Shown here piece after piece: positions 2,859 to 40,108 of a DNA stretch of 40,108 nucleotides; position 1 is the first letter of the stretch; every line of letters starts with the position of its first letter. The stretch lies in the IMG/VR virus record IMGVR_UViG_3300043103_000273, positions 1 through 40,108 of that record; one strand, 5' to 3'. This DNA is from a virus (Duplodnaviria > Caudoviricetes). Below the pieces are notes generated by a model, which was given only the letters and a program-made list of their open reading frames with translations, made no database searches and was not told the DNA's origin. The translations under genes and the position numbers were made by a program.

Positions 2859-2927
2859 ATGACCATAACCAGAACAATCACCGAAGTCTACGTTGGCCCC
2901 GCGACTAAGACTGGGAGCTGGGCATGA
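2859..2927 (+). CDS. 22-aa micro-ORF MTITRTITEVYVGPATKTGSWA
   Basis: Starts 1 nt after the terL stop; its TGA overlaps the next ATG (ATGA). Confidence 0.4.
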   Translation: MTITRTITEVYVGPATKTGSWA

Positions 2928-5900
2928 CAGTCTCAATGAATGTGACCAGTTTGTGGGCCGGAGGGACGGTAACACCGACTGCGCCGCTGATCGAAGGCAC
3001 CGTAGCACCCAGTCTCATCCTTGCTAGGGAGGGCGGTTCTGGGTTTGATCTGAACCCCGCTCCAGCAGCCGGTCGCTACGGATGCCGTATTACTTTCCCC
3101 AGTGCGCTGGATTTTTCTTCTGATTACGTTGGATTTGGTGCGGGGTTTCAAATCTTTGACACCGCCACCAACGTCGCTACGGTCGCCAGCGGTGGATTTC
3201 GGATTGTCTGGGTTGACGGTTCGGGAAATTACGCTGGCTTTAATATCAACGGCGGGAGTATTCCGGGCTATTCGTCAGGTAACGGCGAGGGCTATATACA
3301 GTCGTTTATTACAAGAGATGGTGACTTAGCGCCAGTGTGGGCTATCCACAAAAACAGAACGCCAGATATATTGTCCGGCAGCATCTCATGGAGCAATATT
3401 ACCTCCGTAGAGATTAGTGTTTTAACGACCAGTGCGGTTCGGCGAGACATGTATTTACGGTGTGTGGTTAGAAAAGCCCCCATTCTGGTTACAGGCACTG
3501 AAACCTTTACGACCATTAACACGACAGCCTGGGCGCAGGGTGCTACGGTCATTGACCGTCAGCATTTTGCGCGGCTGAGAAGGTATTTGAATGGGCCTGT
3601 TCAAAGCGTTTTTACCAGCAAGTTAGGGCTTTCCATCGGTGATGGGTCAACCACAACGAACTTCACCGAATCCAACTTTTCGTTAGGGTTTACAAATACG
3701 TTTGACAAATCCCCTGCGTATGCAACAACAGGCCCTTTTGTACAGCTTGATAATAGTAATACCCGCCAAATACTGATAAATCAATCTGCGTCCTGCGTGC
3801 TGTCTTTGTCCGACGGCACGATCGGGTCAGCCGCGTGGTGGCAGTGGGTGTTACAAGGCAGCGGCACGGCAACACTGGCCCGTGTACAGTTTTGGCGTTA
3901 CAACCAGTTTTCGGCGGCTCACGGCACTTACACGGATTGCATTTGGGACGGCGGCGAAGCTGCCGTAGGGGTTGTGGCCGCAACTACAATCACTCGCGGA
4001 ACCGTGCGCAACGCTACTGCGGGAGGGGTGGCAATCACCGGCGCGGCGGGCAGCTATGCAACGAGTCTTGATGCCACATTTGCAAACAATGCCACTTACG
4101 ACATTGCAATGGGTAGTGGTGGTGCGGGCACTTACGTTCTGACGGGCGTAAAAGTAAACAGCGGGTATACCCTCAAACTACACAACAACAGTGCGACCAA
4201 TGCCATCACGGTAGAGATCGCGGCCGGTGTTGCAACCAGTACCACCACTGCGGGCGGCAGTATTACGATTAGTTCGCCAACGCTTGAGCGCGGCATAGCA
4301 TTTACCGGATTGGTGGCAGGTACATCCATTCAGGTGTTCACATCCGGCACACAAACTAAGCTATTCGGCGACAACTCCACAGCAGGCAGCACTTTCGCGT
4401 TTGACGATGCCACGGCAGGTACCATCACGGTGGATTACACAATCCAAAGAGTTGGTTATTTCCCGCAGCGTGTGACAGGTGTAGCGCTTACCGGGGCAGT
4501 GGGCGGGCAGTTAGATGCGCAGGTGGTGCAAGTTGCTGACCGAGCCTACAGCGCGTCTAGCGGGCTGACGTACGGAACTACGGCAATTGCGACGGTAGGC
4601 TCAAACCCAGCGACAAACCCAGGCACCAAGACATTCCAGTTGACCACGCCCAGCACTGTGCAGAACTGGTATTCATTTTGGGTTGAGCAATGGATTGATT
4701 TGGGCAATGCAACAGGCGAGGCGCTGGCCAACGTGGCATTCCCCTTGTCCCAGAATGGCCCCAACAGCTTTACATTGGGTAATGGTTGGGCTTTCAGCAA
4801 TGGCGCCACCAGCATCGCCTTCTTGTCGCGCGACGGCCTTCGCTACACCAATAGCAGCGGGGTGCTGCAAAAGGCTTGGGCGGCGATACTCACCAGCGGC
4901 GTACCCAGTGGCGCGCGAGTGCGTTATCAACAAACTGACGGAGGCACCACGGCAAGCGCGGCGGTTACTTCTGGCAACATGGACGAGCTGATACAGATTT
5001 TTGATACCGGCGTTTTTGATTATCGCGGCTACCTCGTACTCAAGGTACAGGAGATGGGTTATGACCAGGCAGAGGCAAACGCGGTCACACTGTATGGCAC
5101 GCTGGAAGACCAACTTTATGTAGTTGGTCTGGTGCCCTCTCCCAATTCGGTGGCTGTCGGAGACCCGGCGCTGGCAAACCCGCCCACTATCACCGACCAC
5201 GGCGCAAGCCCAGCCACTTGGAACAGCTTGCCCTTTAGCCTCACCATCACGGACAGCGCTGCGGGGAATAGTGGCACGGACATCATGCGCTGGCTGCGCT
5301 ACAGCTTCGAGACAGGCGGCAGTTTCCAGGGCAAAAATGCTTTTGACTGGCACGATCTGGTGCAGCAAAACGGAGATGCTTTTAGGACGGTGCGCGGGGT
5401 TGTTTACGGTGATACCGGGGCCTCGCTCAAAGGCGTGCGCGTAGTCACCAACGCAGGGGCACAGCACCCGGACTTTACCGCCCACACTGCGGACAGCGGC
5501 ACGGTCTTTGTGCCCACATTCCCCTCTTCGGCCTCTGCCACTGTGCTGACAGATACCCGCGTGCAGCTCTACAACGTCACCACCAGCACCGAGCTAAATA
5601 ATGCGTTTGTGACAGGCACAGCGTACAGCTTTGTTGTCAGCAGCGGTGTGACTGTCGGCGATACGGTACGTTTGAGGGCCTGCAAGAAAGGCCGCATAGC
5701 AGCGGAAGCTACGGCGGTATGGTCGTCTGGTGGCGTGACATTTTTACTTAGTCAGCCCGAGGACACCATTTATACAGCTTGGGGGATTGATGGGGCTACG
5801 GTGTCAGAGTACTCGCTAGACGGCATCAATCTGCAGATTGATGCAAATGACGTTGACGGCTTCACGCAAAAAGTCAGGCTTGGTGCGTATTACAGCTATG

Positions 5901-6445
5901 CCCTGACTACAGAGATCGGCATTCGGTCTTTTTACGGCGCGCTGACAGCACTTGCTGCTAGCTCATTGCGAGTCAATGTAGATGTAGTAAGCATGCAAAT
6001 TGATAACGTGAACGCTACCACTGCGCTAGTCTTCACCGATGTGAATGTACGACTGTTCCGGTCGGACGGCTCTACTATCATCGCGCCCACAAGCTACACC
6101 ATCCACAATGACTACAACGGCGAACCGTTCACAGTGGAAACGGGCGTATCAGGCTTGACGGGTTCGGAGTCGGCGCAATTGATGGCTATTCCTAGCGCGT
6201 CTACCAACGCAGACGCAGTTCGGACAGAGCTGACCACGGAATTGGGGCGCATTGACCTAGCAATAAGCACGCGCCTTGCCACAGCCAGTTATACAGCGCC
6301 GCCGAATGCGCCAGAAGTTGCGGACGCGGTACTTACGCTAGCGCAAATAACACCCATTTATTCCGAGGTACGCAGGACTAACGGGCAAAACATCATCGGA
6401 GACGGAACCAAGCCGAACAAGTTCCGGTCGAGCCTTGTGGGATGA
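2924..6445 (+). CDS. Large Gly/Thr/Ser/Ala-rich beta-strand protein, probable virion fibre or adhesin
   Basis: 1173-aa ORF within the head module; beta-rich composition; no recognisable catalytic motif. Confidence 0.75.
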   Translation: MTVSMNVTSLWAGGTVTPTAPLIEGTVAPSLILAREGGSGFDLNPAPAAGRYGCRITFPSALDFSSDYVGFGAGFQIFDTATNVATVASGGFRIVWVDGSGNYAGFNINGGSIPGYSSGNGEGYIQSFITRDGDLAPVWAIHKNRTPDILSGSISWSNITSVEISVLTTSAVRRDMYLRCVVRKAPILVTGTETFTTINTTAWAQGATVIDRQHFARLRRYLNGPVQSVFTSKLGLSIGDGSTTTNFTESNFSLGFTNTFDKSPAYATTGPFVQLDNSNTRQILINQSASCVLSLSDGTIGSAAWWQWVLQGSGTATLARVQFWRYNQFSAAHGTYTDCIWDGGEAAVGVVAATTITRGTVRNATAGGVAITGAAGSYATSLDATFANNATYDIAMGSGGAGTYVLTGVKVNSGYTLKLHNNSATNAITVEIAAGVATSTTTAGGSITISSPTLERGIAFTGLVAGTSIQVFTSGTQTKLFGDNSTAGSTFAFDDATAGTITVDYTIQRVGYFPQRVTGVALTGAVGGQLDAQVVQVADRAYSASSGLTYGTTAIATVGSNPATNPGTKTFQLTTPSTVQNWYSFWVEQWIDLGNATGEALANVAFPLSQNGPNSFTLGNGWAFSNGATSIAFLSRDGLRYTNSSGVLQKAWAAILTSGVPSGARVRYQQTDGGTTASAAVTSGNMDELIQIFDTGVFDYRGYLVLKVQEMGYDQAEANAVTLYGTLEDQLYVVGLVPSPNSVAVGDPALANPPTITDHGASPATWNSLPFSLTITDSAAGNSGTDIMRWLRYSFETGGSFQGKNAFDWHDLVQQNGDAFRTVRGVVYGDTGASLKGVRVVTNAGAQHPDFTAHTADSGTVFVPTFPSSASATVLTDTRVQLYNVTTSTELNNAFVTGTAYSFVVSSGVTVGDTVRLRACKKGRIAAEATAVWSSGGVTFLLSQPEDTIYTAWGIDGATVSEYSLDGINLQIDANDVDGFTQKVRLGAYYSYALTTEIGIRSFYGALTALAASSLRVNVDVVSMQIDNVNATTALVFTDVNVRLFRSDGSTIIAPTSYTIHNDYNGEPFTVETGVSGLTGSESAQLMAIPSASTNADAVRTELTTELGRIDLAISTRLATASYTAPPNAPEVADAVLTLAQITPIYSEVRRTNGQNIIGDGTKPNKFRSSLVG

Positions 6446-20977: not shown

Positions 20978-22096
20978 ATGACGTGGCCAGCTTCAAACAC
21001 CAACACGACCAATGTCGATGCGGGAACGGATTCGCCTGCTTTGGCGCGCGCTGACATTCTTGATGCGCTTCAAAAGTTGAATCAAATCATCGGGCATGTA
21101 AGCCCGTTTATGCAGGGCGTGCTTGATGAAACCACTGATGTGCTGTACAGCCGCGCAGCATTGGCCAAGCCGCTTGTCAATACGTGGGCAACGCGCACAT
21201 CAGCCGCTGATAATAGTTGGCAAAGTGTTTGCTGGTCTCCTGATCTCGCTTTGTTCGTAGCAGTATCCTCATCAGGTACAGGCAACCGCGTAATGACGAG
21301 CCCAGACGGCATTACCTGGACAATACGAACATCCGCCGCTGATACTAATTGGCAAAGTGTTTGCTGGTCTCCTGATCTCGCTTTGTTCGTAGCGGTGGGT
21401 TTTAGCGGCCTCTTTGACCTCGTGATGACGAGTCCCAATGGTATTACCTGGACATCTCGCACATCAGCCGCTGATAATAGTTGGCAAAGTGTTTGCTGGT
21501 CTCCTGATCTCGCTTTGTTCGTAGCAGTATCCTCATCAGGTACAGGCAACCGCGTAATGACGAGCTCAGACGGCATTGCCTGGACATCGCGCACATCAGC
21601 CGCTGATAATGATTGGCAAAGTGTTTGCTGGTCTCGTGAGCGCGGCTTGTTTGTAGCGGTGGCATACAGCGGCACAGGCAACCGCGTGATGACGAGCCCA
21701 GATGGTATTACTTGGACAATACGAACATCCGCCGCTGATGGCGGTTGGCAAAGTGTTTGCTGGTCTCCTGAGCGCGGTTTGTTTGTAGCAGTGGCCGACG
21801 ACTTCACAGCCAACCGCGTGATGACGAGCCCAGATGGTATTACTTGGACATCTCGCACAGCAGCATCTACAAGCGCTTGGCAAAGCGTTTGCTGGTCTCT
21901 TGAAACTGGTTTGTTCGTGGCGGTGGCGTTTAATGGTACAGGCGTGATGACGAGCCCAGACGGTATTACCTGGACATCTCGCACAGCAGCATCTGCAACC
22001 GCTTGGCAAAGCGTTTACTGGTCTCCTGAGCGCGGCTTATTCGTGGCTGTAGCTACTACAGGTACAAACAACCGCGTGATGACCTCTTTGTTATAG
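20978..22096 (+). CDS. Tail fibre / receptor-binding protein with Asp-box (BNR) beta-propeller
   Basis: About 70-aa N-terminal anchor, then 7 repeats of ~43 aa (WQSVCWSP..LFVAV...VMTSPDGITW). Confidence 0.85.
   Translation: MTWPASNTNTTNVDAGTDSPALARADILDALQKLNQIIGHVSPFMQGVLDETTDVLYSRAALAKPLVNTWATRTSAADNSWQSVCWSPDLALFVAVSSSGTGNRVMTSPDGITWTIRTSAADTNWQSVCWSPDLALFVAVGFSGLFDLVMTSPNGITWTSRTSAADNSWQSVCWSPDLALFVAVSSSGTGNRVMTSSDGIAWTSRTSAADNDWQSVCWSRERGLFVAVAYSGTGNRVMTSPDGITWTIRTSAADGGWQSVCWSPERGLFVAVADDFTANRVMTSPDGITWTSRTAASTSAWQSVCWSLETGLFVAVAFNGTGVMTSPDGITWTSRTAASATAWQSVYWSPERGLFVAVATTGTNNRVMTSLL
21185..22085 (+). repeat. ~129-bp tandem repeat, 7 copies, in the fibre gene
   Basis: TGGCAAAG(T/C)GTTT(G/A)CTGGTCTC recurs at about 129-bp spacing. 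Confidence 0.92.
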
Positions 22097-23864: not shown

Positions 23865-23881
23865 TCCCACCTTCTCCGCCA
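23865..23881 (+). mobile_element. attP: attP core: 3' end of a tRNA, probably tRNA-Ser
   Basis: TCCCAC-CTTCTCC-G-CCA matches T-stem 3' strand, acceptor 3' strand, G discriminator and CCA; about 160 bp upstream of the integrase and followed by a terminator. Confidence 0.8.
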
Positions 23882-23901
23882 AGATCAATCTATGGCAATC
23901 C

Positions 23902-23937
23902 AAAAAAGCCCCGCACAGTCTCTGTGTCGGGGCTTTT
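23902..23937. terminator. Bidirectional terminator after the attP core
   Basis: AAAAAAGCCCCG...CGGGGCTTTT. Confidence 0.8.
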
Positions 23938-24041
23938 CCATTGGGCAATTAGTCCATAATCGTCCATGAAAGACTGTGACGATACCACCCCAGCCAAGCG
24001 CTATTTATGGTATCGGGCATGGTATTACATCGGGCGATACC

Positions 24042-25208
24042 ATGACTCTGACAGTGAAGACAATCGAGGGCGCAAAGCCCAGGGACAAGGGCTACAAGCT
24101 GGCTGACAGTGCGGGTCTGTACCTGTACGTCAGCCCGGCGGGCGGCAAGAGCTGGCGGGCCAACTACTTGCGCTTTGGTAAGCAGGCCACGCGCACCTAT
24201 GGCCGGTGGCCAGCTATGAGCTTAGCAGATGCCCGCAAGGCCCATGTTGCATCCCGTGAGCCAGGTGTAAAGGGATCCTTGACACCTGCTGCGCCCACCT
24301 TTGGATCCGTGGCCCGCGCCTGGCTCAAGCTTAAGCTACCCACGCTGTCCAATGGCAAACATCAAATCCAAGTCGAGAACACACTGGAGCGCTTCGCCCT
24401 TCCCGCCCTGGGGCCGCGCCCCATCGATACTTTGCGCCGTGCCGAGCTGGTGGCCGTGGTGCAGGCGGTGCAGGTGGGTGAGCGCATAGAGACGGCGCAC
24501 CGGGTGGCCGGGCGCATCACGGCGGTGTTTGACTACGCCCAAGATGCGGGCCTGATTGAGAGTCACCCAGCGGCGGGCCTGGTGCGGGTGTTGCAGTCCC
24601 GCAAGGTGAAAAAGCCCATGGCCAGCATTGCGGTGCAAGAGGCTGGAGCATTGCTGCGCAGGATAGACGACTACAACGAGCCCGTAACCCGCTTGGGCCT
24701 GCTGCTACTGGCGCACACCTTTGTGCGCGTGGGTGAGTTGCGCGGTATGCGCTGGAGCGAGTTAAAAGAGGACGGCGCTATTTGGGTAGTGCCCGCAGAG
24801 CGCATGAAGTTGCGCCTGCCCCACGTGGTGCCCCTGTGTGCCTCTGCACAGGCCTTGCTTGCAGAGCTGCGCCGCATCAATGGCGAGTGTGAGTACGTGC
24901 TGGAGTCGCCCATCCGGCCCAGGCACCCGGTCTCTGAAAATACTTTTTTGTTTGCCCTGTACCGGCTAGGCTACCGGGGGCGCATGACGGCGCATGGGTT
25001 TAGATCGCTGGCCAGCACGGTGCTCAATGAACACTCGGGCTTTGCGCATGACGTGATTGAGCGCCAGCTGGCACATAAAGAAACCGACGCGGTGCGCGCG
25101 GCCTACAACCGCGCTGAATATTTGCCACAGCGGCGCGACCTCATGCGCTGGTGGGGGGCCTGGCTGGCTGGGCAGCGTGAAGCAAGTCAGATACCCGCCA
25201 GCGCTTGA
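24042..25208 (+). CDS. int: Tyrosine integrase, P4-like with arm-binding domain
   Basis: 'KLADSAGLYLYV...KSW', catalytic R (FVRVGEL), K (RMK), HGFR, LAH, Y (AAYNR); ATG 24042. Confidence 0.96.
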   Translation: MTLTVKTIEGAKPRDKGYKLADSAGLYLYVSPAGGKSWRANYLRFGKQATRTYGRWPAMSLADARKAHVASREPGVKGSLTPAAPTFGSVARAWLKLKLPTLSNGKHQIQVENTLERFALPALGPRPIDTLRRAELVAVVQAVQVGERIETAHRVAGRITAVFDYAQDAGLIESHPAAGLVRVLQSRKVKKPMASIAVQEAGALLRRIDDYNEPVTRLGLLLLAHTFVRVGELRGMRWSELKEDGAIWVVPAERMKLRLPHVVPLCASAQALLAELRRINGECEYVLESPIRPRHPVSENTFLFALYRLGYRGRMTAHGFRSLASTVLNEHSGFAHDVIERQLAHKETDAVRAAYNRAEYLPQRRDLMRWWGAWLAGQREASQIPASA

Positions 25209-25362
25209 GCCCGCCTATTTCTACGGCTTTTGGGATATTGCCGTTTTTCAGCTCACGCCAAAATGTGGACTTGCCCATGCTCAATAGCGCGGCGGCTTCT
25301 GCTGCCGGGACTAAGATTTTCTCGGATGGTGGTATTTTTTGGGTCATTTCGCAACTTTTCAT
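25141..25362 (-). CDS. AlpA-family excisionase
   Basis: 'AAALLSMGKSTFW...G.IPK...IGG..RWRVSDL'; convergent overlap with int. Confidence 0.85.
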   Translation of the reverse strand: MKSCEMTQKIPPSEKILVPAAEAAALLSMGKSTFWRELKNGNIPKAVEIGGLKRWRVSDLLHAAQPARPPTSA

Positions 25363-25463
25363 AAATTACTGTCTCTTTTCTTGCAGCCTTTGCCGCTACT
25401 TTTATTGCAGCAAGCCACGGCTAATGCGTGAGACTTGCGAGTGTTTTTAGTGTTTTTTGACAT
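25359..25463 (-). CDS. 34-aa ORF MSKNTKNTRKSHALAVACC..., starting inside an attC-like loop
   Basis: ATG 25463 with GGA upstream; its TGA overlaps the alpA ATG (ATGA). Confidence 0.35.
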   Translation of the reverse strand: MSKNTKNTRKSHALAVACCNKSSGKGCKKRDSNL

Positions 25464-25504
25464 GGTTTTTCCGGTGTTATCCGACGGTCTATATCGCGTT
25501 AGAG
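25419..25504 (+). mobile_element. attC-like site 0 (degenerate)
   Basis: GGCTAAT GCGTGAGAC ... GTCTATATCGC GTTAGAG imperfect hairpin; its R' pairs with the R'' of the next site. Confidence 0.5.
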
Positions 25505-25710
25505 CGCGCGCGAATCATGGTCGCGCAACTTCCAGCTATCCCGACACCAACAAGCAAATCATCAATGGTATGCGTATCACACACATTCGCACACGCCTCG
25601 CGCTCCCTTGCCACCGCAGCAGCAATCAACTGCTGCAAGTCGGCATGACTCACAGGTTTACTTTGCCCTAAACTAGCATTCACAATCCTGAGTTCTTCTC
25701 TGAATTTCAC
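25489..25710 (-). CDS. Hypothetical protein (EREACA motif), cassette gene
   Basis: GGAGA RBS with GTG start; 'AVAREREACANVCD...CATMIRAR'; stop lies inside attC0. Confidence 0.75.
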   Translation of the reverse strand: MKFREELRIVNASLGQSKPVSHADLQQLIAAAVAREREACANVCDTHTIDDLLVGVGIAGSCATMIRARSNAI

Positions 25711-25731
25711 AGTCTTCTCCGGTTAAAAGCT

Positions 25732-25785
25732 CTCTAACTCTCTGTCGATTGGATGCCTACGGCACCACTCACAACGGCGTTATGC
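25732..25785 (+). mobile_element. attC-like site 1 (54 bp)
   Basis: CTCTAAC-TCTCT-GTCGATTGGATGCC-TAC-GGCACCACTCAC-AACGGC-GTTATGC, with an unpaired A in the left arm. Confidence 0.7.
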
Positions 25786-26139
25786 CGCACTTAACGCCGC
25801 CGTAGGAGCCATAGCGGCAAGCGCAGTCACCGTCTCGGGGTGGTGCTCCAGCGTGTCTGCGTCTGGGTTCACCATCTTGTTTCTCGGGTCCAGCAATACG
25901 GTCATGCCCCACACCACGCGCCCAAGGCTTGCACGGTCTGTCAGGTCCAAAAGGTAGCGCAACGCACGACCGCATTGCGCGTCGTCGTCGCGGTCAAAAC
26001 TTTCTCTCTCGTCGTCATCTTGCAGGTTCTCAATCGGCTCAGGCATTGCTGGGCTCCAGCGCTGCCCCAGTACATCAAGCGCACTTACCAATTCCATTGC
26101 CATATTCAAATCAGCTTCACTGGCTTTTGCCATCTTCAT
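25780..26139 (-). CDS. Hypothetical protein, cassette gene (MKMAKASEADL...)
   Basis: GGAAGGA RBS before ATG 26139; TAA stop lies inside the R' of attC1. Confidence 0.8.
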   Translation of the reverse strand: MKMAKASEADLNMAMELVSALDVLGQRWSPAMPEPIENLQDDDERESFDRDDDAQCGRALRYLLDLTDRASLGRVVWGMTVLLDPRNKMVNPDADTLEHHPETVTALAAMAPTAALSAA

Positions 26140-26164
26140 GGTGTTTTCCTTCCGCAGCATTGCT

Positions 26165-26223
26165 GCATAACATTTCACTAATGACGGACGTGCTACGCCC
26201 GCCGCATACTTCAGGCGTTAGGT
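26165..26223 (+). mobile_element. attC-like site 2 (59 bp)
   Basis: GCATAAC-ATTTC-ACTAATGACGGACG...CGCCGCATACT-TCAGGC-GTTAGGT; layout matches the classic 59-base element. Confidence 0.8.
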
Positions 26224-26224
26224 T

Positions 26225-26452
26225 TCATGACGTGCATCCAAGACATTCGATGCCGTCTTCAGCTTCGGCGGCAAGATGCCCGAAGGCGTCAGCCTGCGCC
26301 GCAGTAAAAGCCAGCATCTGCGAGTAGCCAGTGGGCGTACCCACCAGCAGCGCGCTTCGGGACGGCGCATCTAACACGTCGCTGCACCGGACCCGCACCA
26401 GCGGGTCGGTGGCGGGCGTCTGTCGGTGGGTATTGGTCATGTCGGTGGTCAT
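26225..26452 (-). CDS. Hypothetical ~75-aa protein starting within the attC3 loop
   Basis: ATG 26452 or 26440; reads across the attC arm (VRVRCSDVL); C-terminal CxxC. Confidence 0.5.
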   Translation of the reverse strand: MTTDMTNTHRQTPATDPLVRVRCSDVLDAPSRSALLVGTPTGYSQMLAFTAAQADAFGHLAAEAEDGIECLGCTS

Positions 26453-26490
26453 CGCGCTGGTTCGGGCCGGTGAAGCGGGATTTGAAAGAC
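26369..26490 (+). mobile_element. attC-like site 3 (long, R' eroded)
   Basis: ATCTAAC-ACGTC-GCTGCACCGGACCCGCACCAGCG pairs with CGCTGGTTCGGGCCGGTGAAGC; no GTT at the right end. Confidence 0.65.
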
Positions 26491-29071: not shown

Positions 29072-29299
29072 GGTATTTGTCTCCAGTGTTGCTAGGGTGT
29101 TGTGGTGTGCATGCAGCCATGTGGGCCTGCAGCTGGGTGTGGGCTTCTTGGGCGGCGCGCAGGGCGGCGCGTATGCCGCCCAGGGCGTAGCGCATTTCTT
29201 TGTGCGCGGTGTGGGCCAGGGCGTTGCCCAGGGTGGTGCTGGCAATGTCGGCCAGGGTGGCGGTAGTGCGGGATTTGGGGGTTGTGCAAGAATGGGGGT

Positions 29300-29539
29300 A
29301 TGACTACCGTAACCCTTGATACCCTCAAGCTGGCCGACAAGCTGGCCAGCGCTGGCTTTGACAGAGTGCAGGCGGAGGCAGTGGTTCGCGCCATTGCCGA
29401 GGCGCAGGATGAGCTTGTGACGCGCAGCGCGTTGCAGATTGAGTTGGCTCCTATGCGCGCCGAGTTGATGCTGCTGAAGTGGATGATGGGCTTCAATCTG
29501 GCATTCACCATGGCGGTGCTGTGGAAGGTGTTTTCCTAA
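29300..29539 (+). CDS. DUF1640/CCDC90-like membrane-anchored coiled-coil protein (antisense moron)
   Basis: 'DTLKLADKL..AGF...QAEA', 'LVT', 'LLKWMMG' and a C-terminal TM helix. Confidence 0.85.
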   Translation: MTTVTLDTLKLADKLASAGFDRVQAEAVVRAIAEAQDELVTRSALQIELAPMRAELMLLKWMMGFNLAFTMAVLWKVFS

Positions 29540-32315: not shown

Positions 32316-32840
32316 CTAAAATCCGAACGACACCGAAAGCGCCATGGTGGCAGGGCTCACATTCTGCACCTTGGGGATCACCATCAGGTGAGCCTCTACC
32401 GGGCCAATCGGCACACTCAGGGCCAAGGCCGCGAAGGGTACCGCGTCGTCTTGATAGCCAGAGACCATGCCCGCAAAAACACCGGTTTTAACCGGCCCCA
32501 GGCGCACCGGCTGCCAGGCGGCACCGGCGTAGACACTTTGTTTGCGCAGGCTGTTGTTGTAGGTGCCAGCGGCCAGCCGCCAATCGTCGCTGACCGGGCA
32601 TAGCAAGCCCACGCCCGGGGTGTTGCCGTTGTAGCCCGGCTCGGCGTGGTAGGCCGCAATGTGCAGCTGGATTGCGCAGGGGGCAATGGCAGCATCAGCC
32701 CTTGCATGACCCGCAAACAGGGCGCAGGCAGCTAGCAAAGTGATAGCAACACCGGCAAAGTTGCGCCGGGTTGCGTGAGCGTGCTTATTCCCACCCCCCC
32801 CCACTGCGAGGTTCTTTATACGAGAATAGATATATAACAT
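32316..32840 (-). CDS. PagP-like outer-membrane beta-barrel protein
   Basis: AGGAG RBS, signal peptide ending ARA-D, 'H...YNGNTPGVG', 'GTYNNS', 'G..SGY', terminal Phe. Confidence 0.7.
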   Translation of the reverse strand: MLYIYSRIKNLAVGGGGNKHAHATRRNFAGVAITLLAACALFAGHARADAAIAPCAIQLHIAAYHAEPGYNGNTPGVGLLCPVSDDWRLAAGTYNNSLRKQSVYAGAAWQPVRLGPVKTGVFAGMVSGYQDDAVPFAALALSVPIGPVEAHLMVIPKVQNVSPATMALSVSFGF

Positions 32841-32875
32841 TGTCTGGCTCCTGGAATAGATCAATCTGGGCAGCA

Positions 32876-33355
32876 TTATGTACCCGTTGATTTCTCGGGG
32901 GGACTTTTTCTTGGGTTCACGACCATTTCCATGAGCACCCCAATCACGTGCGGTGCGCTCGAGGGCTGATAGACAAGCCCGGACAGCCATCGGGCTGCAT
33001 TATCCATATCTTCCTTGGGCAGGCCCTCGAAGCACCGTGCCAGGGTGTTGCAGGCGTCTTCCAGGCTGGGGATGGTGTGGGTTGCCGACTGCCCGTCTCG
33101 CGTGGTGCGTATTGCTTTGTAATTGGCTATGAACTCATGATTTTGTAGCCCGTTGCTCATCAACTCCGCTACTGATATGCCCAGCAACTTGGCGACTGCT
33201 GGCTGATGTTTCCTGCTTGGCGCCGTGCCGTCTTCTTGTTCCCACTGAAATACGGCTGTCCTTGTGACCCCCAGGGCATCTGCAAACTGCTGATGAGTCA
33301 TTTTTAGGCGCTTTCTGCCAGCCTTGATTACTTGGTGAATCGACATATTTTGCAT
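32876..33355 (-). CDS. cI: CI-like repressor (XRE HTH, no S24 peptidase domain)
   Basis: 'IKAGRKRLKMTHQQFADALGVTRTAVFQWE'; divergent from cro. Confidence 0.85.
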   Translation of the reverse strand: MQNMSIHQVIKAGRKRLKMTHQQFADALGVTRTAVFQWEQEDGTAPSRKHQPAVAKLLGISVAELMSNGLQNHEFIANYKAIRTTRDGQSATHTIPSLEDACNTLARCFEGLPKEDMDNAARWLSGLVYQPSSAPHVIGVLMEMVVNPRKSPPEKSTGT

Positions 33356-40096: not shown

Positions 40097-40108
40097 AGTA
40101 ATTCGAGC
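40097..40108. repeat. Terminal 12-bp direct repeat, right copy
   Basis: Identical to 1-12. Confidence 0.9.

Follow-up and report, generated by a model that had tools for sequence, protein, structure and literature searches.

The window analysed here is a complete virus record by estimate (IMGVR_UViG_3300043103_000273; 40,108 bases), with lambdoid head, tail, lysis, repressor, int and xis genes, and it represents a temperate phage. Homologs of its genes and the type of its attC sites (see below) suggest a host within the Comamonadaceae or their kin. The two ends of the record (1–12 and 40097–40108) carry the same 12-nt repeat, AGTAATTCGAGC, just upstream of the terminase genes, which is either cos-like or an assembly overlap. 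Several other genes stand out along the genome. A 1173-aa ORF (2924–6445, plus strand) in the terminase-portal interval matched nothing in PHROG or Pfam, and the end of the tail module encodes a highly repetitive, low-GC protein of 372 aa (20978–22096, plus strand) that is likely a receptor-binding protein. Within the leftward early operon, an 85-aa gene with a weak match to phrog_17872 (29282–29539, plus strand) runs on the opposite strand, while a minus-strand ORF by the repressor (32316–32990) matches a PagP-like lipid A acylation protein in PHROG (E 7e-10) and nothing in Pfam.

At its distal end the leftward early operon contains, between a 169-aa early gene and xis, an array of one attI-like site, two attC sites and one decayed attC site (Table 1). 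ATGA overlaps enter this array at site 4 and exit toward xis. By the definition in the available text of PMC4889954 it is a CALIN, not a complete integron, as there is no intI gene in the window (no match of its record to the IntI profile TIGR02249, 0/1). The preliminary description of this DNA had seen a P4-like Int as the only recombinase; the absence of IntI bears this out, and Int itself carries arm-binding domains. The real start of xis is probably near 25340. Four phages share xis-int DNA that is 69–72% identical, with similarity starting at 25300–25340, and upstream of their xis-int no attC was matched. Likewise, no attC was matched downstream of the 169-aa gene in eight syntenic relatives, which have other genes there. 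The 34-codon ORF across the attI-like region is, to judge from its overlap with the ATG at 25362, a possible translational bridge. Int is the sole recombinase found in the window and adjoins the array, so that it could be supposed to recombine the attC sites by itself; this is scarcely credible, given the arm-binding domains and lack of an IntI match, the four relatives with 69–72% identical int and no attC, and the presence of arrays with unrelated backbones. The DNA upstream of int (23865–23983) has a 76% match in 2 of the 301 genomes sampled from the Xenophilus family, which says little about the host, and may belong to the attP region. L156:2850-4000 has, by eye, a reverse-transcriptase-like ORF immediately upstream of its xis homolog, the slot of the array in the window, and this is possibly another diversification module. 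L007:7300-8300 has a duplicated stretch of ∼130 nt, differing mostly at A positions and followed by a short gene, which by eye looks like a diversity-generating retroelement.

Table 1. Features of the cassette array and its surroundings (positions in the window).
Feature	Position	Strand	Details
Tyrosine integrase of the phage (not IntI), arm-binding domain present	23976..25208	+	phrog_1; PF13356, PF22022, PF00589
Excisionase/AlpA-like gene (xis), last in leftward early operon	25141..25362	-	phrog_66
34-codon ORF spanning attI-like region	25359..25463	-	from sequence; stop overlaps ATG at 25362
attI-like site (site 1)	25470..25504	+	direct-repeat-like GTTATCC; GGTCTAT as L box and G|TTAGAG as R box, with a 5-nt spacer
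Gene A, 73 aa	25489..25710	-	crosses crossover; stop 10 nt into attI-like site
281-bp cassette A with site 2	25499..25779	+	ends 9/10 complementary
attC site 2	25732..25785	+ (top), folding bottom strand -	25.1 bits, E 2e-4
438-bp cassette B with site 3	25780..26217	+	ends 10/11 complementary
Gene B (119 aa), from a widespread family of early genes	25780..26139	-	110 homologs; 56 loci
attC site 3, 59 bp	26165..26223	+	41.8 bits
Unit C, relic cassette	26218..26487	+	3' remnant of PAPS-reductase-like gene; ends 6/7 complementary
75-aa ORF	26225..26452	-	start inside site 4, end in gene remnant
Decayed long attC, site 4	26369..26487	+	15.9 bits, E 0.053; R'' and stem retained, GTT of R' missing
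Backbone early gene, 169 aa	26496..27005	-	upstream of array, ATGA-coupled into site 4

Four attC sites had originally been proposed. Host integron regions next to intI were fetched (20 in all, 19 genomes of a sample from the family of a Xenophilus genome and one Rhizobacter genome contributing), and a covariance model was made from the aligned bottom strands of 46 host attC sites picked by architecture, phage sites and L009 being excluded. The 40-kb window, scanned with filters off at a cut-off of E<=10, gave 11 matches. The top three were sites 3, 2 and 4, whose bottom strands all coincide with the minus (coding) strand, and the best match outside the array reached 10.2 bits. Sites 2 and 3 are thus attC sites as proposed, with the canonical spacing (AAC-5-L''8...L'7-6-GTT), extrahelical bases and a bottom-strand hairpin, although their L boxes pair at only 5 of 7 positions. 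Site 3 has precisely the 59 bp first ascribed to it, and over 58 nt it shares 81% identity with the attC that opens a complete Diaphorobacter plasmid integron (NZ_CP049911). Site 4 retains this structure in part: the window has GGGATTTGAAAG where related contigs keep the GTT box, and two contigs that are 87–89% identical to the body of the site keep L', the 6-nt spacer and GTT. Site 1 lacks the structure.

Folding of the bottom strands gives moderate support to sites 2–4. Compared with shuffled sequences, sites 2 and 4 fold well (z of -2.55 and -2.67, respectively), while site 3 is weaker (z of -1.36, with 18 of 200 shuffles folding equally well), its full hairpin not being its lowest-energy fold. 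That last feature, and the position of the hairpins at gene junctions where they are transcribed, would suit RNA elements or boundary sequences of homologous recombination that merely resemble attC. Such a reading is very improbable. The three sites are unlike one another in sequence, and the attC spacing and the positions of the bulges are nonetheless kept; Rfam returned no match; and in other genomes (see below) exchanged segments stop at TAAC with the entire hairpin on one side, and a homolog of one array gene lies at a real attI.

The preliminary description had placed a further attC at site 1 (25419–25504). This can be rejected: the model has no match there, and 179 of 200 shuffles fold equally well. 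The 3' end of the site resembles the attI of Comamonadaceae. Host attI regions possess a repeat of the GTTAT[CG]C type, an L box and a GTT, all of which are present in the window, with the predicted crossover at 25498|25499; between repeat and L box there are 10 nt fewer than in attI1 and L090. A matrix was made from 18 host sites, selected for TA at -8 from 24 picked in 33 loci; it is short, and its selection rule was fixed after the window had been seen. By this matrix the site is joint best of the 782 GTT sites of the window, tied with one unrelated site, at 8.5 bits (host range 4.9–16.2), and GGTGTTATCC occurs in the window only here. An attI pattern tailored to such sites matched the window once, the prophage L049, and 1 of 183 viral loci, while the exact motif of the window was found in neither the viral contigs nor the metagenome contigs (0 in each). 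The GC content of the attI region is 43%, against 63–66% in the flanking genes, and a 159-bp low-GC stretch, absent in relatives, separates the site from xis. Taken on its sequence, site 1 is likely attI-like. A LexA box considered near 25367 was dismissed by eye for its wrong spacing.

The prophage just mentioned, from Rhizobacter, carries an attC, a whole cassette of the PAPS-reductase type and a canonical attI, on the same backbone as the window (ParB, a 165-aa gene and gene B); its genome encodes an intI 1.4 Mb away. The Rhizobacter intI (L066; G003:C1 near 3477700) has no recognisable adjacent attI, though the prophage has a canonical one. Site 1 might also be no true attI at all, with host IntI having inserted cassettes at a chance secondary site (attG, GWT) and then at the attC sites of one another. 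Insertion of cassettes at GWT sites across genomes is documented in the available text of 10.1101/2022.09.11.507474, the repeat spacing in the window is shorter and the matrix score low, and other arrays (L018, L181) end in less attI-like sequence. We nevertheless hold this to be improbable, in view of the rank of the site and its sole copy of GGTGTTATCC, the low-GC stretch before xis that relatives do not have, and the canonical attI of the related Rhizobacter prophage.

Pairing of the cassette ends divides the array into three units. The R'' of each site pairs with the R' of the previous site at 9/10, 10/11 and 6/7 positions, exceeding the pairing within sites; recomputation returned exactly these values, first given in the preliminary description, and confirmed its boundaries for the first two units. 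This is the end complementarity of integron gene cassettes. One gene had been assigned to every unit; in unit C, however, all that is left is the final ∼30 codons of a phage gene resembling PAPS reductase (22/29 identical). Gene A had no match in Pfam, PHROG or PADLOC, and its homolog in L150 is flanked by two attC sites with the same end boxes. Searches with the DNA of cassette A or attI gave four weak matches in 401 family genomes, of which the two viewed were unrelated. The last three bases of cassette B are the TAA stop of gene B, and its end boxes (GTTATGC/GCATAAC) recur in L018, L021, L041 and L052. Gene B also lacked matches in Pfam, PHROG and PADLOC, with no usable match in Atlas, and the cassette genes matched nothing among named phages.

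Contigs with the gene remnant of unit C terminate in an 11/11 complement of the other end of the unit in the window, though these contigs are unlinked to it. Judging by that complementary end, unit C looks internally deleted and is probably chimeric. It had also been considered as a gene-less cassette of host type; this was rejected, since the best of 21 weak matches in the 401 genomes was the end of a prophage-like PAPS-reductase-type gene. Cassette A is nearest the attI-like site and is therefore predicted to have been inserted last, and unit C is predicted to be the oldest. The window thus offers a decay series of intact, worn and relic attC sites, in which the score does not change monotonically with predicted age (15.9, 41.8 and 25.1 bits). 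Given the incomplete L-box pairing of sites 2 and 3 and the loss of R' from site 4, the array may be frozen.

All three ORFs lie on the bottom strand of the attC sites (minus), the top strand being plus. The canonical layout, with a gene on the top strand and the attC behind it, is not found in the window; following the gene, the order in each cassette is attC, leader, gene, and a stop at or near TAA|C. Gene orientation relative to attC had gone unmentioned in the preliminary description. Cross-pairing is symmetric and so gives no direction, which is set by the attC spacing and the model. No consensus sigma-70 promoter was found between 23700 and 27100, and the genes of the array face the opposite way to a Pc promoter reading through attI. 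Since they are antisense to the canonical cassette direction, the early transcript of the phage would read them; as every cassette opens with its attC and its reading frame stops close to the crossover or right at it, no Pc would be needed.

Reversal was commoner in the viral arrays scanned than in the host ones. A degenerate attC pattern, drawn up with both host and phage sites in view and possibly biased toward some types, matched 119 viral stretches. The covariance model found 263 sites in 79 of the first 80 viral loci. A cruder first count had given 47 reverse, 23 forward and 11 unclear among 81 viral sites; the classifier behind it was noisy, detected no more than 6 host sites, and gave way to a matrix finder strict enough to find only site 3 in the window. 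In the first 80 viral loci scanned, 51 cassettes were then reverse, 15 forward and 35 unclear (n=101, from 51 loci), as opposed to 5, 63 and 15 for host cassettes (n=83, in 15 of 20 regions). The five reverse host cassettes are held by L109, L110 and L118. Full 4/4 matches were more frequent between neighbouring sites than within sites, both in viral (74/101 vs 24/101) and host arrays (59/83 vs 15/83), and the median cassette size is similar (460 bp in phage arrays, 510 bp in host integrons). None of five array-bearing virus records, which are 42–67% complete, had IntI. One viral contig (L187:1500-3800) contains at least five near-identical cassettes of 316 bp in tandem.

The attC model was run on 52 of the 56 gene B loci, the other four being near-duplicates. 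An attC adjoins the gene in 5 of the 56, and most of the others are plain ATGA-coupled genes. Two cases of exact exchange at G|TT were seen. The sole block common to L018 and L021, a gene-B cassette, is 491 nt long, 96% identical, and runs from TAAC to TAAC between different neighbours; L181 and L237 have a 428-nt cassette in common that is 100% identical, again with differing neighbours. In Ideonella livida (L052), a gene-B cassette (65% aa identity) lies first at attI beside intI, in reverse orientation, with a second reverse cassette behind it, and this integron is complete. When 25 internal shared blocks were examined, 9 began and 10 ended within 8 nt of TAAC/GTTA (chance 0.051); both ends do so in 5 of the 25, and in 1 of 18 viral-viral blocks by strict count, or 2 on inspection. 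The comparison of relatives at G|TT suggested by the preliminary description gave exact swaps of homologous cassettes in these two pairs. For the copies in the window itself it turned up neither a near-identical phage differing by a cassette nor a joint of the array in the contigs of four runs, which drop rare variants.

A gene B tree was built on 44 rows, which include L150 and the window but leave out 12 of the 56 loci (duplicate, short or unmatched). On it the six cassette-borne copies require five changes of label, at least three of them forced by well-supported branches. A single clade of cassette-borne copies is rejected (p-AU 0.0002), and the rows nearest the window have no attC. The tree fits repeated formation of cassettes and repeated loss of attC equally well.

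A simpler origin would be one illegitimate capture of a host integron fragment, comprising attI and three cassettes, with IntI never active in the phage. The attI region has low GC and host-like motifs, the sites are partly decayed, reverse cassettes do occur at the host attI of I. livida, and Vibrio phages have taken up chromosomal integron segments according to the available text of Qi 2023 (PMC9892861). Host cassettes are mostly forward, however, so that three consecutive reverse ones are unlikely under capture; the genes come from families of phage early operons, no remnant of intI is present, and cassettes have been swapped exactly between phages. Overall we regard a single capture as unlikely, if less so than chance insertion at attG.

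We think it probable, from the sequences compared here, that this is a small reversed cassette array built in trans by host IntI in a phage without IntI. Having no integron integrase of its own, the phage likely borrows the host enzyme to gain or lose small phage genes. IntI is SOS-regulated in the host, and LexA-like boxes were seen upstream of host intI. A search for intI in host genomes had been suggested; in a sample of 301 genomes from the family to which a Xenophilus (Comamonadaceae) genome belongs, 131 encode IntI. The substrate of host IntI would be the folded bottom strand of a circular cassette, here the coding strand, and the enzyme would join it to the attI-like site at 25498|25499. 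Each newcomer would thereby come to lie directly upstream of xis, in the succession C, B, A, and would be read by the phage early transcript without a Pc promoter. In time the attC sites would decay, as at site 4, and ordinary operon genes would remain. A borrowed host integrase had been part of the original proposal. The IntI-type cassettes cut at G|TT and the absence of a phage IntI agree with it, and action in trans is plausible; for shuffling at present, neither joint nor relative was found.

A wider and more speculative possibility is that phage early operons make integron cassettes, in that ATGA-coupled genes repeatedly become reversed cassettes, circulate by way of host IntI and phage attI, and spill into bacterial integrons. 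If the reading of an array built by host IntI is right, phages would gain site-specific gene mosaicism from bacterial integron machinery, in a layout suiting their own operons, and exchange cassettes with host integrons. A gene family in which plain operon genes and cassettes occur side by side at several places on the tree provides before-and-after pairs; the window contributes, in a 40-kb phage, an attI-like landing site and attC sites at successive stages of decay. The origin of cassettes is stated as unknown in the available text of PMC4889954.

Chromosomal integrons of Comamonadaceae and other Burkholderiales (intI-attI-Pc-cassettes) share with the window the attC type, attI-like motifs, cross-paired ends and cassette size. 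Unlike them, the window has no intI and no sigma-70 promoter match, and its genes are reversed, being read from the far end toward attI. SALINs and attG insertions (Loot et al., 10.1101/2022.09.11.507474, as far as its available text goes) are similar in that IntI acts away from its platform and that loss of attC can domesticate a cassette; there, a lone cassette lies in a chromosome, whereas the window has an ordered array at an attI-like site in a phage operon. One reverse cassette type has been described in Xanthomonas, according to the accessible part of 10.1101/2025.06.18.660453.

The closest precedent is the work of Qi, Rajabal, Ghaly, Tetu and Gillings in 2023 (PMC9892861), whose available text reports 17 CALINs among 10,705 phages, recombination of 5 of 6 phage attC sites by IntI1, and a proposed exchange of phage CALINs with bacterial integrons. 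The earlier claim that attC clusters were undescribed in phages was thus too strong. As far as that text shows, those CALINs agree with the window in having at least two attC sites, no intI, and sites of a kind recombined by IntI1. Their typical arrays differ from the window, which has its genes on the bottom strand, draws on phage early-gene families and includes an attI-like site. In their model case, TJE1, the covariance model places the genes opposite the bottom strand of all three sites, the canonical arrangement, although the sites are nearly symmetric and the comparison is limited to TJE1. Reversed genes in phage arrays are not described in the available text of that paper, and no published description of reversed phage arrays was found in a search that left most subscription journals outside. 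Relative to the published phage CALINs, what appears new in the window is the reversed layout together with an attI-like site.
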